A stretch of DNA of 64,000 nucleotides from a virus (taxonomy: Duplodnaviria; Heunggongvirae; Uroviricota; Caudoviricetes), in IMG/VR virus record IMGVR_UViG_3300044475_000054, positions 1-64,000 of that record. The stretch is one strand, 5' to 3'. The notes beneath the pieces are model-generated. The model did not search any database. It saw nothing but the letters and a program-made list of their open reading frames with translations, and had not been told where the DNA came from. Below are positions 20,556-35,249 of the stretch, piece after piece. The translations under genes and the position numbers were made by a program. The first letter of the stretch is position 1; each line of letters opens with the position of its first letter.

Positions 20556-21025
20556 CACATGTTATATAACACCAATAGGGAGCGATTAGCTCCTTTTATT
20601 TATGCCCTTAGTAACTAATAGTATTAATCGCCAGTACAACAAATAACACCCTACAACATAATAAAACATATGCAATCAGCTAATCTTATAATTAGACTCA
20701 TAGTTATATTCTCAATCGTTTATCTATTATCTAGTTACTTATACGACACCTTCTTAATACATACCCATATGCTGCTCTCTTTTGTCTGTTATGTTAACTT
20801 ACTGGATTATTCTTGTTATCCTTATTACCCTGTAGTACGTGTTGTTTAGCTTGACAACCTCAACCTCCTCTACAACTCTCCTCCCTAATAACCTCTACAT
20901 AAGCTACTAACTTCTAGTAAGTGTATATCTACTGGTAAGCTACTACCTATGTAATAGTATGTTATGAATACATAGATGAATGATAACGTGAGCGTAGTGA
21001 TGACTAAATTAAATGAATAAAGTTA

Positions 21026-21054
21026 TTGACACTGTATGAGTAATTAACGATAAT
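21026..21054 (+). promoter_or_regulatory. sigma70-like promoter ttgaca-N17-gataat
   Basis: TTGACA 21026-21031, GATAAT 21049-21054. Confidence 0.45.
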
Positions 21055-21093
21055 GAATGTATTAGGTAACACACAACATAAGAGAGCAACACT

Positions 21094-21294
21094 GTGAACA
21101 TAGAAGCAACTAAGCTACTGTTAGGTAGCAGAGATAAAGCGGAGTACATACTTAAGCATAAACCTTTTGTAGCTACTCACTTCAACACAATGGATGATTC
21201 ATATATAAACAATGTAGAGCCTGAATATGACAGTATCCTGTACATAGACTTGATTGAACTAAGTAGGTATCTTAGAAGTAATAAAGATTGGTAG
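21094..21294 (+). CDS. hypothetical protein (GTG start)
   Basis: RBS aagagag 8 nt before GTG. Confidence 0.4.
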   Translation: MNIEATKLLLGSRDKAEYILKHKPFVATHFNTMDDSYINNVEPEYDSILYIDLIELSRYLRSNKDW

Positions 21295-21682
21295 AGCTAC
21301 ACATACAGTAGTCTTTAGGATATCAACACATCTTAGGGACTACTTTAGACCACTGAGTTGATAGTACAGAATATTTATCTTTAGATATTTTAGAATCATA
21401 AGGAGGTTTAGATTTGGGGGTGTGGGTGCTGTTAAGCAACACTTCTATGATTCTAAGAAATTAAGGAATACCATAAGAGATATTTCTGTAGGTAGTAAAA
21501 CTAAGAAAGATAACAACACTTCTATGAATACAATATTTTTACAAGAAACCTTACAACCACTAGGGTTTAACAATGGAAAGATAACAATAAAATAACAATG
21601 AAAGAACAATAAGTTTGATAGAGATTTTGATACTAATTTTATTGTTAGTTGATGTAGTGCTAGCGGTGTTCTTAGACTGGTG

Positions 21683-21817
21683 TATTATCTCTATTTATTA
21701 TATTTTAGTATGTTGATATTTTAAGATAGTAACTTCTTAGTATTATCTATTTTATTATATACATATAGATATTTTTATTATTCAGTTTATTATCTTTTAT
21801 AGTGTTCTCTATTATCT
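21683..21817. repeat. AT-rich iteron-like array: four copies of TATTATCT (21683, 21741, 21788, 21810)
   Basis: Direct octamer repeats in a 700-bp ORF-free AT-rich stretch in front of the helicase-like gene. Confidence 0.4.
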
Positions 21818-22002
21818 CAAAATAATTTTTAGTATTATGATAAAAACACCTAATCTCTAGTTGTGTAATCTTAGTTGTTGTGTTAAACTTGAGTTAGTAC
21901 GTGACAAAAATAATCTAGTTTCTCCTAAAGAGAGAATTTAGAAATTCGAAAAATGTCACGTTTTTCTTTAGTGCTTAACTTATAAGGAGTATACATACTT
22001 AC

Positions 22003-23886
22003 ATGAACCAAGTAAAGAGTTTATTAAAAATAAATCCATCCAACCTTACAGAAGATATTTCTACAAACACACAAACCTTAGTTGTACCTACAGGTTTACA
22101 CTACATGAGTGAAGTGCTAGAAGACTTACCCAAAGGAGTATTCATTGATAAACAAGTATGTGGTGTTGGTGGTACTACGTTAGCTATCAAGTCCAACACT
22201 AATTACGTTATCGCTGTACATCGTAAGCTCCTTGTTGAAAACAAACACATCCAACATCCAGATATTTTAGTTAAAGTTCTAGGTGGTGTCAAGGTTGATG
22301 ATATTATTAGTCAAGTTAAATCTGGTAAGAATAAGATCATTACAACTTATGATGGTTTAAAGAAAGTATCAGAAGCTTTAGGTAGTCTTGGTGTGTTAAA
22401 TCATTTCCATCTCTTAGTAGATGAGGTTCAGAATGTTATTCGAGAAGGTGGAGATTTTAGAGATGAGGTGTGTAACTACTTACTGGATAATAGTTGTAAC
22501 TTTGCTTCTGTATCCTACCTAACAGCTACGTCAACAGAACGAAAATATCTTCCAGAACAGATTAGAGATATTCCATACCTAAAGATTGAATGGGAAGATA
22601 GCGTTAACATCAAGGTTAATCAGAAACACATCAAGGGTGATCTTACTCAAGCTATCACAGCTATCGCTTTAGAGCACTTGGATGACTCTAGTAAAGGTGA
22701 AGCTTATTTCTTCTTCAATAGTGTTAGAGGAATCCTGCCTGTTATTAAGAACCTTATTAAGTTGAGAACAGTAACAGAAGAAGACATTAAGATTATTTGT
22801 GCTGATAGTGAAGATAATGAGAAATTGTTAAACTCTCTTGGTGGTGTATGGAAACCTGAGAGACCTTTAGACCAAGATAAGGATGGTAACTTAGTTGTAA
22901 ATAACAAGACGATTACGTTTATCACTAAAACTTGTTTTGAGGGTGTTGACTACTACTCAGATAATCCTGTAACCTACATCGTGTCTGATGCTAGGAATAA
23001 AGAGAAGCACTTCGTTAAGACAGACATTGCTATTGATATTAGACAGATTGCTGGCAGATTTCGTACAGCTAACCCAATGTCTAAACAGGAAGTAGTGTTG
23101 CTTTGGACTGGTCAGTATGAGGGGTTTGGTTTGTCTGAACAAGAGTACGAGGAGCATGTACTGCAAGAGATTGAGAAAGCTAAGAACACGATCAATCTTG
23201 TCAATAGTGGTCAAATCCATTCAACTCTAGAACAGTTAGCTAAGACATCTAAATATTATACAGAACGCGATGGGGTTGTGTGCTTAAACAACCTAGCCTA
23301 CAGTAATATCATGTCTGAGTATCGAACACAGTACGAAGATTTCAAAGTAGTTGTGGATGGTGGTAAGGAGATTAAAGCTTTGGATAACCGTTTGAATAAA
23401 CTTTATGATGTTGACAACTATGTCATACCGAAGCTATCACCTTTAGACAAAACTGGTCTAGGGAAGAAACTGAATTTCGCTGAGGTGTCTTATGATCTAT
23501 ACAACCTACTTTCTTTAGGTGTCGATAATGAGGAGGTTAGAAATATCTACTTAGCTTGTCCTCGACTTAAAGAGTATGTAGATGAGCTTGGTTTTGATAT
23601 TCTTAAAACACTAGGTTATCAAGAAAGTAAGATCAAAGTTAAGTTCAATGAATCTATTGGTTCTAAAGAAACTTCACTAAGACTCAAAGACGTGCAAGAC
23701 TGCTTAAATTTTAGTATTGGTGATAAGTACACTTCTAAGCAGTTGAAAGACTTGTTTGCTGAGTGTTTTGAATCCTTATCTATTAACAAAACAAGTAAAG
23801 CTAGTTGTGTGTTAGACTACTACAGCGTTGGTCGTGCTAACATTAATGGTTGTAGAGGTTATAAGATTCTTGGTAAATTAAGTTAA
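22003..23886 (+). CDS. SF2 helicase-like protein with degenerate motif I (no P-loop lysine)
   Basis: Motif II LLVDEVQN, motif III LTATST, motif VI QIAGRFRT. Where motif I should be there is VPTGLHYMS or CGVGGTT, with no GKT/S. 627 aa. RBS taaggagtatacatacttacATG. Confidence 0.5.
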   Translation: MNQVKSLLKINPSNLTEDISTNTQTLVVPTGLHYMSEVLEDLPKGVFIDKQVCGVGGTTLAIKSNTNYVIAVHRKLLVENKHIQHPDILVKVLGGVKVDDIISQVKSGKNKIITTYDGLKKVSEALGSLGVLNHFHLLVDEVQNVIREGGDFRDEVCNYLLDNSCNFASVSYLTATSTERKYLPEQIRDIPYLKIEWEDSVNIKVNQKHIKGDLTQAITAIALEHLDDSSKGEAYFFFNSVRGILPVIKNLIKLRTVTEEDIKIICADSEDNEKLLNSLGGVWKPERPLDQDKDGNLVVNNKTITFITKTCFEGVDYYSDNPVTYIVSDARNKEKHFVKTDIAIDIRQIAGRFRTANPMSKQEVVLLWTGQYEGFGLSEQEYEEHVLQEIEKAKNTINLVNSGQIHSTLEQLAKTSKYYTERDGVVCLNNLAYSNIMSEYRTQYEDFKVVVDGGKEIKALDNRLNKLYDVDNYVIPKLSPLDKTGLGKKLNFAEVSYDLYNLLSLGVDNEEVRNIYLACPRLKEYVDELGFDILKTLGYQESKIKVKFNESIGSKETSLRLKDVQDCLNFSIGDKYTSKQLKDLFAECFESLSINKTSKASCVLDYYSVGRANINGCRGYKILGKLS

Positions 23887-23893
23887 ATAAAAA

Positions 23894-23926
23894 GGAGACT
23901 ACTGTTTGGTAGTCTCCTTTGTTTTG
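23894..23926. terminator. bidirectional rho-independent terminator between convergent genes
   Basis: ggagactac-tgtttg-gtagtctcc perfect 9-bp stem flanked by A-run and T-run. Confidence 0.65.
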
Positions 23927-32179: not shown

Positions 32180-32460
32180 GGAAGGGGTTAGGGGTTGAGT
32201 TATATATTTATCTAGTTTAAATAATATTACTATATTGAATACATGAGCTATGTATGATTCAAGAGCTTTTATATAATTATATATATATTAATAAATACTA
32301 AATATAATACTTACTATAATACTTATATTAAATACTAATAATATACTTACAGTAAGTATATCTTATGAATACTTAAAGTATTACATACTGTATTAGATAT
32401 ACCTGTATATGATTTAATAAGAATAAATCTTATTTAGATATAATTATATTTATATACTTG
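32180..32460. repeat. AT-rich repeat region with ATACTTA-type motifs and a 19-nt palindrome (32342-32360), related to window positions 1-250
   Basis: tatacttac-a-gtaagtata palindrome. Motifs aatacttacagta and gtattacat/ttagatata are shared with 40-105 of the window. Confidence 0.4.
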
Positions 32461-32680
32461 TGTTTGGTGTTGTTCTTGTTTGGTGCTAAGAGCGAAGCGA
32501 TAGGTTTGTCATGTTGGTGTTCTAGGTGTTACCTGATTGAGTTAAACACAATAAACCTAATCTTTTGTTGTTTCTTACTAATTTGGTGTAATTTGATTGA
32601 ATTTAACCTGATTTGGTGTAAAAAAGATAAAAATATTTGTGTTTTGATTGTTTTGTGTGCTAATTTGTGTGTTCAAGGGG

Positions 32681-32759: not shown

Positions 32760-33600
32760 GTAGATCGAAGTTCTCCTAACTTCCTTACTATCTGTGGAGA
32801 GTCAACTCCACACTATGAGAGCTTTGGTAAGCACAGATAAGTTAGAGAGTTCGATTCTTCTAAGCGTGAAATACGTTATCGTGGTGAATACGTAATGTGT
32901 GAGTAGGTTCAAATCCTACAGCTCTCCACCAAATATCTCCTATGTCGCTACTCGTTCGTATTAAAGTTCATCTCCTTACTTTGATATGATTGCTAGGTAG
33001 TCCGCATAATCGTAAGCGGAACTAATTTAAATTGAATGGAGTAAGATTATGAAAGATGGTTATGGTTTAGGTAGCGAAGGCTACGGGCTAGGTTGAGTCA
33101 AAATTATGCGGAAACCAAGATGGTGTAGTGAAGTAAACGACTAGTTAAGTTTATGAATCGAGAGTCAGAGCATATCTGATAATTCCGCTCCAAATTAAAC
33201 AACACCAAACAAGCCTAGAATGATGGATTCCATTGTGCTGTATCGGGATGTTAATAAACATGACTTCGGTAGATGCTCAAACTGTTTGGTTGCTTATGGT
33301 GTTATGACCTTCCACCGTACACAAAGGTCGCTTATTTTAGATATATTTGATGAAAACCAGTAACACATAGTTACTAAGGTATTTCAAGTATTCAAAACGG
33401 TGTTGGATGTTGAATGAGCTTCAAATCCCTCAAGACTAATCTGTGAAGTTAGTCAATTTTATTGAGAAGTAATTGGTCAAGAGTATCCTTTCAGTTGTTT
33501 AAAGACTCACCCATGCGCGTGTTAGTTTAGATTGTCTGTGTAACTATTTGCAATGTCGTTACAGATTACTTCATCAATAAAATTATAATAACAAATTAGG
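32760..33600 (+). ncRNA. candidate large structured noncoding RNA (~850 nt, ORF-free, GC-enriched relative to flanks) containing a tRNA-like T-arm (32903-32927)
   Basis: No ORF over 60 aa on either strand. Many local and long-range complementarities: gtggag/ctccac at 32794-32811; tatctgtg/cacagata at 32789/32832; ccgcataat/attatgcgg at 33002/33102; gcggaa/ttccgc at 33017/33184; gtagc-gaagg-gctac at 33071-33086; gactaa...ttagtc at 33443-33466. The T-arm reads gtagg-TTCAAAT-cctac then agctctcc-acca. A strong promoter lies upstream. Confidence 0.3.
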
Positions 33601-34193: not shown

Positions 34194-35249
34194 ATGAAAA
34201 CACTCAAATTACGCATAAAAGACAAACACGCAAAGGTGCTAAATCAGATGGCTTCTGAGGTTAATTTTGTCTGGAATTATGTGAACGATTTGGGTTTCAA
34301 GCATCTAAAAAGAAAGGGCGAGTTTCTTTCAGCATACGATATTGCCAAGTATACAAAAGGCGCATCAAAAGAATGCAATCTACATAGCCAAACGATTCAG
34401 GCTGTGACCGAAGAATTAGTCATACGAAGAAAACAGTTCAAGAAAGCAAAGTTGAAATGGCGTGTCAGTAATAAAAAATCAGCTAGGCGTTCATTGGGTT
34501 GGATACCGTTCAAAAAGGTTGCAATCAAATATGCTGATGGCTACGTGCAGTATGGCAAGCATCAATTCAAGCTATGGGATAGCTATGGACTATCAAAATA
34601 CAATGTTAGAACAGGCGCATTTGTAGAGGATAGTCGTGGGCGTTGGTATGTGTGTCTTGTTGTGGATTCACCTAAGCAAGATAAACCAAAGGCAACCAAA
34701 GCAATCGGTATTGATCTAGGCTTGAAAGATGTTGCCACCTGTTCTGATGGTACGGTTGTTTCAAATCCTAAGTTCTATCGTAAATATGAGCAGAAATTAG
34801 GGATTGCTCAAAGAGCAAGAAATAAGGAGCGTGTTCGTGCATTACACGCAAAAATTGCCAATAGTCGTAAAGACCATTTGCATAAAGCAAGTACTATGCT
34901 TGTAAAAAATAATGCTATGATTGTTGTAGGTGACTTGAGTGCTAAAAAACTTGTAAAAACTAAAATGGCGAAATCTGTTTTAGATACAGGATTTTCAGCA
35001 CTCAAAACAATGCTCAAGTACAAATGCGAGAACGCAGGAGTATTGTTTGAAGAAGTCAACGAATCATATACCACCCGAACTTGTAATTTTTGTAGTGGAG
35101 ATACTGGACCACGTGGAATTAACGGTCTTGGAATAAGAGAATGGGAGTGTCGTGACTGCGGTACAGTTCATGATAGAGATGTAAACTCAGCTCTTAACAT
35201 TCTTGCGCTCGGGCATGAGCGTCTAGTAGTAGGAATCCCCTTGCTTTAG
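34194..35249 (+). CDS. tnpB: IS200/IS605-family TnpB (OrfB) RNA-guided nuclease homolog, with an apparent Glu-to-Gly change at RuvC-II
   Basis: OrfB_IS605 layout. RuvC-I AIGIDLGLKD. Central MIVVGDLSAKKL where the family has ivvEdL. Zinc finger CNFCSG...CRDCG. RuvC-III HDRDVNSALNIL. RBS tagaggtttaaATG. Confidence 0.8.
   Translation: MKTLKLRIKDKHAKVLNQMASEVNFVWNYVNDLGFKHLKRKGEFLSAYDIAKYTKGASKECNLHSQTIQAVTEELVIRRKQFKKAKLKWRVSNKKSARRSLGWIPFKKVAIKYADGYVQYGKHQFKLWDSYGLSKYNVRTGAFVEDSRGRWYVCLVVDSPKQDKPKATKAIGIDLGLKDVATCSDGTVVSNPKFYRKYEQKLGIAQRARNKERVRALHAKIANSRKDHLHKASTMLVKNNAMIVVGDLSAKKLVKTKMAKSVLDTGFSALKTMLKYKCENAGVLFEEVNESYTTRTCNFCSGDTGPRGINGLGIREWECRDCGTVHDRDVNSALNILALGHERLVVGIPLL

Follow-up and report, generated by a model that had tools for sequence, protein, structure and literature searches.

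A helicase-like gene downstream of a repeat-rich region

The 64,000-nucleotide stretch analysed here (the window; positions 1 to 64,000 of IMG/VR record IMGVR_UViG_3300044475_000054) is DNA of a tailed phage, about 35% GC and densely packed with small open reading frames (ORFs), among them a terminase/portal/tail block and genes for Thy1, dUTPase, dCMP deaminase, PhoH and a ClpP-like protein; a ribonucleotide reductase and an RNase_T/RNase_H-like exonuclease of the same phage are encoded just outside it. Our subject is the segment at 21.3–23.9 kb, where a gene for a 627-aa ATPase-like protein of superfamily 2 (SF2) follows a repeat-rich region of 27% GC (Table 1). The protein is 100% identical to a Joint Genome Institute metagenome protein encoded on an 81-kb contig; further homologues, 96–57% identical, lie on 82–84-kb and shorter contigs, one of them binned as Erysipelotrichaceae, and none of 50,697 phage records matched the locus in a megablast search. 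For the upstream comparison, six relatives (82–57% protein identity), including the loci L088, L001, L089, L086 and L003, were fetched and aligned.

The protein has an SF2 fold and a P-loop without the canonical lysine

The AlphaFold2 model of the protein, computed with a 24-sequence alignment, is confident (predicted local distance difference test score 86.4, predicted template modelling score 0.79) and contains the two tandem RecA-like domains expected of an SF2 enzyme, followed by a C-terminal region that ends in a small α/β domain (residues ~560–627). The Foldseek search with this model, a check proposed in an earlier note made from the sequence alone, agrees with the SF2 fold and places UL9 of herpes simplex virus 1 (HSV-1) at rank 14. 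That note had described a 627-aa product with motifs II, III and VI but no GKT/S, and this is confirmed: DEVQ (140–143), LTATS (173–177) and QIAGRFR (348–354) are all in place, while GK[ST], and with it the GxxxxGK[ST] Walker A of SF2 enzymes, is absent over the whole length of the protein. Its motif I, given as VPTGLHYMS / CGVGGTT, holds for the second half only, CGVGGTT being part of the P-loop and VPTGLHYMS (residues 29–37) a separate conserved segment upstream of it. Since hhalign sets GVGGTT on GTGKTT of phage T5 D2, G57 takes the place of the Walker-A lysine; in the same alignment K50 lands on a D2 lysine, where UL9 has an arginine. Searches of Pfam, PHROGs, NCBIfam and PADLOC with the window protein returned no match, nor did PHROGs and PADLOC match the homologues of cultured phages or plasmids, and a sequence search of the Protein Data Bank with the family profile found nothing, UL9 included.

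A profile search over 1.84 billion cluster representatives recovered a family of 3,816 proteins at E ≤ 1e-3 (clusters at 50% identity), of which 1,408 reach E ≤ 1e-30; the best 150 matches listed are mostly 560–660 aa long and align end to end. In IMG/VR the family occupies 496 loci. Besides phages, phage-plasmids and plasmids, at least one locus flanked by integrases carries it; on a Bacteroides record that also holds chromosomal-type genes, the family gene lies between integrase genes. Among cultured phages only Psychrobacter phage D'Alembert, Acinetobacter phage Phab24 and Edwardsiella phage ET-ABTNL-9 carry it, and IMG/VR contigs of jumbo-phage size (245–400 kb; for example L020/L032, L021/L030 and L028/L046) have two paralogues each, tens to hundreds of kb apart. 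Members receive at best the label "DEAD/DEAH box helicase family protein", and no description of the family was found in the searched literature or curated libraries.

The lysine-less P-loop is common to the 205 family members that were aligned and recurs in D'Alembert, Phab24 and the Acinetobacter plasmids described below. At position 57, 168 of the 205 have G, 19 have A, 9 M, 3 L and 1 Y, and none has K. In 13 of them KGKT occupies positions 50–53, just before GCGGTT, which is a non-homologous GKT about four residues off the canonical place; position 52 is variable apart from these members. Complete or almost complete conservation is seen at K50, K81, T115, D140, E141, Q348, R352 and R354, and position 143 is H in 137 members and Q in 64. 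The earlier note had left two options for such a protein, a non-canonical ATPase or a pseudo-helicase. In favour of the latter, a catalytically dead protein whose fold is kept for a structural or regulatory role, the canonical lysine is missing in 205 of 205 members. Dead enzymes, however, usually lose several motifs, whereas here D140/E141, H/Q143, Q348, R352/R354, T58 and K50 have all stayed (nearly) invariant, and the K50–T58 stretch is free of indels, fixing the length of the P-loop; we therefore consider a dead enzyme very improbable. Because motifs II and VI are strictly conserved despite the wide divergence of the family, we infer a working nucleoside triphosphatase. The conservation of K50, D140/E141, Q348, R352 and R354 fits the first option and argues for an active, non-canonical ATPase with a relocated lysine rather than a decayed pseudo-helicase, and we propose that K50, the invariant lysine opening the P-loop, supplies the missing charge. 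Relocated catalytic lysines are known from WNK kinases and, as the "signature lysine", from the deviant Walker-A ATPases MinD and ParA. The family would be analogous to these in that the canonical lysine is replaced and another invariant lysine stands at the start of the phosphate-binding loop; the folds and families differ.

Parts of the upstream DNA are under constraint

As a neutral yardstick for the upstream region we used the third codon positions of the gene, which are 51–59% identical in the five closer relatives. Parts of the upstream non-coding DNA are more conserved than these positions and are thus under constraint: identity to the window in five relatives is 67–94% for an array of AACAAT repeats and 76–78% for the block at 21682–21727, and the region of an inverted repeat is conserved in three relatives (69–84%). 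The upstream spacers, at 42–60%, are at the neutral level.

The repeats were also compared with 2,000 dinucleotide shuffles of 21295–22002. Four AACAAT within 45 bp arose in none of the shuffles (0/2,000) and four copies of GATATTT in one (0.05%), whereas an exact direct repeat of at least 14 nt occurred in 18 (0.9%) and any 8-mer at four copies in 53 (2.7%). As the shuffles seldom or never reproduce them, the upstream repeats exceed chance by a modest to clear margin, which for the octamer TATTATCT is not dramatic. One could still regard the repeats as functionless chance products of AT-rich intergenic DNA, given that short AT-rich words recur easily at this GC content and that the fourfold TATTATCT is unconserved. 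The comparative data largely refute this explanation, which we take to be almost certainly wrong: blocks are conserved above third-codon identity, the AACAAT cluster exceeds anything in the shuffles, and GATATTT is enriched on a single strand and at the same place in five independent relatives.

Among 7-mers, GATATTT is the most enriched in the upstream regions. The window and five of the six relatives have 4–9 copies of it within ~720 bp (mostly 650 bp) of the gene, all on the plus strand, with recurring 23-bp spacings in the relatives and a density 9–24 times that of the rest of each locus. We rejected it as a phage promoter element, since its copies elsewhere in the window lie mostly within ORFs. 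The AACAAT repeats, accompanied by an inverted copy (ATTGTT) at 21641–21646, form the best-conserved repeat array and are the leading candidate for an initiator binding site.

The elements that the earlier note had emphasised are present, yet most of them are not conserved, and the conserved ones are the four AACAAT repeats and GATATTT. All four TATTATCT octamers are where it had placed them, at 21683–21817 on the plus strand (starts 21683, 21741, 21788 and 21810). Two are the heads of a composite repeat of ~45–58 bp that ends in GATATTTT, and the composite repeats together (21682–21785) hold two octamers and two GATATTT copies. The octamers are largely specific to the window, which has 10 copies in total against 5.2 expected. 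There are exactly two copies of CAACACTTCTATGA, the first at 21437 as described and the second at 21514 rather than 21513. An extra segment at this position is common to L089 and L086 and absent in L088, L001 and L003, and this suggests that a duplication of ~77 bp produced the pair. Only the second copy lies inside a block conserved across relatives. The 16-codon TTG mini-ORF led by a Shine-Dalgarno sequence exists (21414–21464) but is not conserved, a stop following after three codons in L001 and the Shine-Dalgarno sequence being missing in L088, L089 and L003, and it is probably not a gene. Nor is the region strictly the 700 bp free of ORFs that had been described: this holds loosely, with mechanically called ORFs of 57 aa (21422–21595, plus strand) and 54 aa (21445–21609, minus strand) overlapping it, the former without a counterpart in the six relatives. 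Against Rfam the non-coding region gave no match at gathering score (the best E-values, 0.16 and 0.53, fall far short of the gathering scores) and no tRNA.

Immediately in front of the gene, a promoter-like site of the form TTGTxx-N17-TGnTAnACT is conserved in six aligned sequences. It was read from the alignment, the consensus scan having omitted it because its −35 element matches at only 3 of 6 positions, and it is the predicted promoter of the helicase-like gene. The inverted repeat follows. Its arms begin at 21899 and 21954, not at 21898 and 21950 as the earlier note had it, and the designation "palindromic operator" does not suit arms that lie 47 nt apart and start ~10 nt past the promoter-like site, for which a leader hairpin is at least as probable. 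The arms are identical in four of five sequences and read ATGACA...TGTCAT in L086; the consensus fold is weak (−2.6 kcal/mol), with too little variation to test pairing. The repeat is likely to be a 5'-leader hairpin, or else a protein-binding site. Between the Shine-Dalgarno AAGGAG and the ATG, the 13-nt spacing, unusually long for a bacterial ribosome-binding site, is kept in the window, L088, L001, L089, L086 and L003. On the far side of the region, the hairpin at 21304–21347 probably ends a small transcription unit and marks the left edge; the 66-aa ORF of that unit has no counterpart in the six relatives, and nucleotide similarity to them is undetectable over 20560–21380.

Table 1. Positions of sequence elements in and around the helicase-like gene (window coordinates)
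Feature	Position	Strand	Details
Near-consensus sigma-70 promoter	21026–21054	+	TTGACA, 17 nt, GATAAT; precedes 66-aa GTG ORF 21094–21294
Imperfect hairpin	21304–21347	+	18-nt arms, 78% complementary; directly after stop of window-specific ORF 21094–21294
Conserved block A (AGATATTTTAGAAT...)	21381–21400	+	holds first GATATTT copy; 60–85% identity in five close relatives
Mini-ORF, probably not a gene	21400–21464	+	AAGGAGG 21400–21406, 7 nt, TTG 21414, 16 codons, TAA 21462–21464
Two exact copies of CAACACTTCTATGA	21437–21450, 21514–21527	+	77 nt apart
Four AACAAT repeats	21569, 21583, 21594, 21605 (array 21569–21610)	+	spacing 14, 11, 11 bp
Two composite repeats	21682–21725, 21740–21785	+	each GTATTATCT, TTTATTATAT, then (T/A)GATATTTT
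15–16% GC tract, candidate DNA-unwinding element	21690–21850		second least stable duplex of the 64-kb window; includes TATTATCT at 21788 and 21810
Promoter-like site	21861–21889	+	−35 TTGTGT 21861–21866, 17-nt spacer, TG 21881–21882, −10 TAAACT 21884–21889
8-bp inverted repeat	21899–21906 (ACGTGACA), 21954–21961 (TGTCACGT)	+	imperfectly palindromic 47-nt core; starts ~10 nt past predicted −10
Shine-Dalgarno AAGGAG	21984–21989	+	13-nt spacer to ATG 22003
627-aa SF2 ATPase-like protein	22003–23886	+	RecA-like domains ~residues 1–370; family-specific C-terminal region 371–627
Non-canonical P-loop K50-Q-V-C-G-V-G-G57-T-T (KQVCGVGGTT, residues 50–59)	22150–22179	+	G57 at canonical Walker-A lysine position
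Motif II DEVQ	22420–22431	+	D140, E141 invariant in 205/205 members
Motif VI QIAGRFR	23044–23064	+	Q348 205/205, R352 204/205, R354 203/205
Bidirectional intrinsic terminator	23891–23920	both	separates helicase-like gene from convergent minus-strand block

Long gene-free gaps accompany the family

A long upstream gap is typical of family loci. The nearest upstream ORF of at least 60 aa lies at a median distance of 530 bp in 77 family loci, compared with 41 bp for 302 control ORFs, and the gap is 400 bp or longer in 68% of family loci and 10% of controls. The annotated genomes of D'Alembert (1.35 kb) and Phab24 (0.93 kb) have such a gap too. In two of the relatives a 33-bp stretch of the gap contains three perfect DnaA boxes (TTATCCACA), all on the same strand (L086, 803–842; L089, 2177–2217), in a gene-free region 0.8–1.0 kb upstream of the family gene and with a C-rich tract before the boxes; no other such cluster was found in about 1 Mb of fetched loci.

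Such a gap could alternatively be a genome end, that is, a terminal-repeat boundary or packaging site, with the helicase-like gene merely the first in the unique region. In T7, arrays of short repeats adjoin the terminal repeat. The 5.7-kb terminal repeat of D'Alembert ends 1.1 kb upstream of its homologue, within the ORF-free gap, and 8 of 80 IMG/VR loci (L010, L013, L017, L022, L033, L046, L055 and L066) end 0.25–0.95 kb upstream of the gene and none downstream; the L088 contig, moreover, begins exactly at block A. However, the breaks in one lineage coincide with a drop in identity from 99% to ~80% about 135 bp upstream of the start, which points to a hypervariable upstream region that breaks assemblies rather than to physical ends. 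The L086 contig runs ~1.1 kb past block A, the terminase gene is 16 kb away from the helicase-like gene, and circular plasmids and phage-plasmids show the same gene and long gap without terminal repeats. On balance, a genome end at this position seems improbable.

The gene is shared by Acinetobacter plasmids without an annotated Rep

The family gene is present on 16 Acinetobacter plasmids. Four complete ones of 35–38 kb were read; two are intact phage-plasmids, the third is a decayed phage-plasmid and the fourth a resistance plasmid that lacks phage genes. The family gene (52–79% identity) and the genes for a ParA-like ATPase and its small partner are the only ones common to all four, and three also have a resolvase. 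None of the four has an annotated Rep. The PGAP locus tags of NZ_CP092455.1 and pZS-1 run on without a gap, which makes their gene lists complete, and it is on these two that the argument for the lack of a Rep rests. Of ten proteins scanned in NZ_CP092455.1 (nine besides the family gene), those with matches had only structural or antitoxin-type domains, and the two larger non-structural hypothetical proteins had no match. In the two plasmids whose upstream gaps were checked (1.4–3.2 kb), no ORF exceeds 94 aa. L094 (NZ_CP092455.1), L095 (pZS-1) and L093 are phage-plasmids or remnants of 37–38 kb; L094 encodes a terminase, portal, capsid, nozzle, parA-like pair, toxin-antitoxin pair and resolvase, and pZS-1 a portal and capsid. 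Their maintenance module is shared with the non-phage resistance plasmid NZ_CP123920.1.

Because a plasmid needs an origin and usually an initiator, and no other candidate is shared, the family gene with its upstream gap is the sole origin/initiator candidate in the shared maintenance module. In the literature, 437 Acinetobacter plasmids are listed as having no identifiable rep, which "likely involve a novel Rep" (PMC12284255).

A possible origin-plus-initiator cassette or a control region

Taken together, the conserved non-coding blocks, the family-wide long gap, the DnaA-box trio and the Acinetobacter plasmids lend substance to the earlier note's proposal that iterons beside a helicase-like gene mark an origin. 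We regard the reading of the 21.3–23.9 kb segment as a replication-origin-plus-initiator cassette, which rests on context, as the best supported of the explanations considered, at about even odds of being right.

A number of observations weigh against it. The window contains no DnaA-box cluster. Its GC-skew minimum and most AT-rich tract are at ~32 kb, 10 kb from the gene. Exact 8-mer arrays are significant only in this clade, with none upstream of distant members of the family, and classical iterons were looked for in the gaps of the Acinetobacter plasmids and rejected, only scattered repeats in 2–3 copies being present. Larger Acinetobacter plasmids with the family gene do carry Rep_3, and since one of them, pTB2-2B-tetX, is typed R3-T63 (PMC12904642), the family gene is not always the sole replicon; after this typing we also discarded the absence of a MOB-suite replicon as proof that a Rep is absent (PMC12904642). 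Finally, the lytic relative D'Alembert is self-equipped for replication with a primase-helicase, PolA, SSB, exonucleases and a ribonucleotide reductase, and has a gene annotated "Replication initialization protein", without Pfam support. As lytic relatives carry their own replisome, the SF2 protein is not the replicative helicase, and an initiator role beside a helicase-primase would parallel the situation in HSV-1.

The skew itself, which the earlier note had offered as a check, has its minimum away from the gene and proved uninformative as an origin marker: each reversal of the cumulative GC skew, at 24, 32 and 61 kb, falls exactly on a change of gene orientation, so that the skew tracks that orientation only. 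The tract at 32180–32480 (14–17% GC), the least stable of the window, has overlapping AT palindromes at a divergent junction at the skew minimum and is an alternative origin candidate.

In a different explanation, the upstream DNA would serve solely to control transcription and translation, with a promoter, a leader hairpin and sites bound by a phage regulator, and the protein would be an SF2 double-stranded DNA translocase (for example for recombination or fork remodelling, RapA-like recycling of transcription complexes, or countering host defence) rather than an initiator. The conserved promoter-like site is followed at once by the inverted repeat, the gene sits away from the replication module, the lytic relatives encode a complete replisome and a gene annotated as initiator, and RapA is the best profile match among four proteins compared (61–82% over motifs Ib–III). 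But a control region leaves unexplained why the gene and the parA-like pair are the sole common genes of four Rep-less plasmids, why a trio of DnaA boxes lies upstream, and why loci throughout the family have 0.5–1.4 kb of AT-rich DNA without ORFs beside the gene; GATATTT is no general promoter element in this genome, and PADLOC gives no match. We judge this explanation unlikely, though deserving of serious consideration.

Resemblance to known initiators and motors

The origin-plus-initiator reading draws its nearest functional analogues from HSV-1 UL9 and T5 D2. Like them, the 627-aa protein would combine an N-terminal SF2 motor with a C-terminal region that could bind DNA, and it is encoded by a viral gene beside a separate helicase-primase (seen here in the relative D'Alembert). 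Motifs I–III are in register, with GxGGTT, TTYDSL, DEV and TAT in the family against GxGKTT, (V/T)(V/I)(E/H)SL, DE(V/C) and DAT in UL9/D2, and the K50 position is basic throughout (R in UL9, K in D2). A part in initiating replication has been proposed for T5 D2, which is inactive when it carries K405E (PMC3632103). In contrast to the family, UL9 and D2 keep the canonical GKT, and the C-terminal region of the 627-aa protein has no detectable similarity to theirs. Pfam PF02399 (Herpes_ori_bp) matched none of 24 members at E ≤ 1, and a homologue search with the T5 D2 core as query yielded three fragments only. The hhalign probabilities were 5–14% for D2, 4% for a UL9 fragment, 56% for the UL9+D2 pair, 61–82% for RapA (SNF2) and 1–2% for RhlB. 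Specific homology to UL9 and T5 D2 was therefore rejected, the RapA control having scored higher, and this too counts against an initiator.

SNF2 proteins (E. coli RapA, INO80, CSB) offer the second comparison. SNF2 enzymes have a T(S/T)Y(D/E) motif, which the TTYD of the family resembles, and RapA, the best of the four proteins compared, aligns at E ~1e-5 over motifs Ib–III, 63–65 columns only. Pfam SNF2-rel_dom matched one of 24 members, weakly (E = 0.041), and SNF2 proteins, unlike the family, carry a canonical GxGKT. The best description of the 627-aa protein is that of a member of an orphan SF2 family whose motifs resemble those of SNF2 proteins and of UL9 to some degree.

The upstream DNA resembles iteron origins, such as those of Acinetobacter Rep_3 plasmids and the lambda ori/O system, in having at least three regular repeats in the same orientation, at a spacing of about one helical turn, which adjoin an AT-rich tract and lie immediately in front of a candidate initiator gene. 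It differs from them in its cores of 6–8 bp, where classical iterons have 17–22 bp, which is a further point against an origin here, and in that the candidate initiator is an SF2 motor and not a winged-helix Rep.

Other features of the window

Upstream of the terminase/portal block, a TnpB-like ORF (34194–35249) matches Pfam OrfB_IS605 and a Cas12f1-like TNB domain. A tRNA-like element of ~111–115 nt at 32817–32931 (also ~32845 and 33417) has a perfect T-arm (GTAGG-TTCAAAT-CCTAC) and a 7-bp acceptor pairing (GAGAGCT/AGCTCTC); it has no match with default ARAGORN or Rfam, and ARAGORN with introns and a lowered threshold reports tRNA-Phe(gaa) with a 15-nt intron.

A model for initiation and its implications

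In the model that we favour for the cassette, the C-terminal region of the protein would recognise same-strand repeats upstream of its own gene, namely the AACAAT array, with its spacing of about one helical turn, and GATATTT. The SF2 motor would then spend ATP on distorting or opening the adjacent 160-bp tract of ~16% GC, and a replicative helicase would take over the opened DNA. Lytic relatives such as D'Alembert would use the primase-helicase of the phage itself for this, whereas the small Acinetobacter phage-plasmids, having no further replication protein of their own, would depend on a helicase of the host. In L086 and L089, host DnaA would probably be recruited as well, through the three perfect DnaA boxes.

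More broadly, and with a probability that we put somewhat short of even, the segment may be the first example of a very large class of initiators of mobile elements, in which the Walker-A lysine of an SF2 motor has shifted to the beginning of the P-loop (K-x3-G-x-G-G-T-T) and the motor acts on an origin immediately in front of the gene that encodes it. At least one group of "Rep-less" Acinetobacter plasmids and phage-plasmids would have its missing Rep in this class, whose members would also work in lytic phages of Firmicutes and Proteobacteria, in jumbo phages (two copies each) and in integrative elements. Even if the origin reading proves wrong, a P-loop that lacks its lysine and is conserved throughout a large family is a real feature in need of an explanation. 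If it is right, a function would be assigned to a family of thousands of clusters that is invisible to Pfam, PHROGs, NCBIfam and PADLOC, and some of the rep-less Acinetobacter resistance plasmids and phage-plasmids, an open point in plasmid typing (PMC12284255), would gain a candidate replication route. For P-loop enzymology, the family would also be of mechanistic interest as a naturally occurring SF2 ATPase that works although it lacks the canonical Walker-A lysine.

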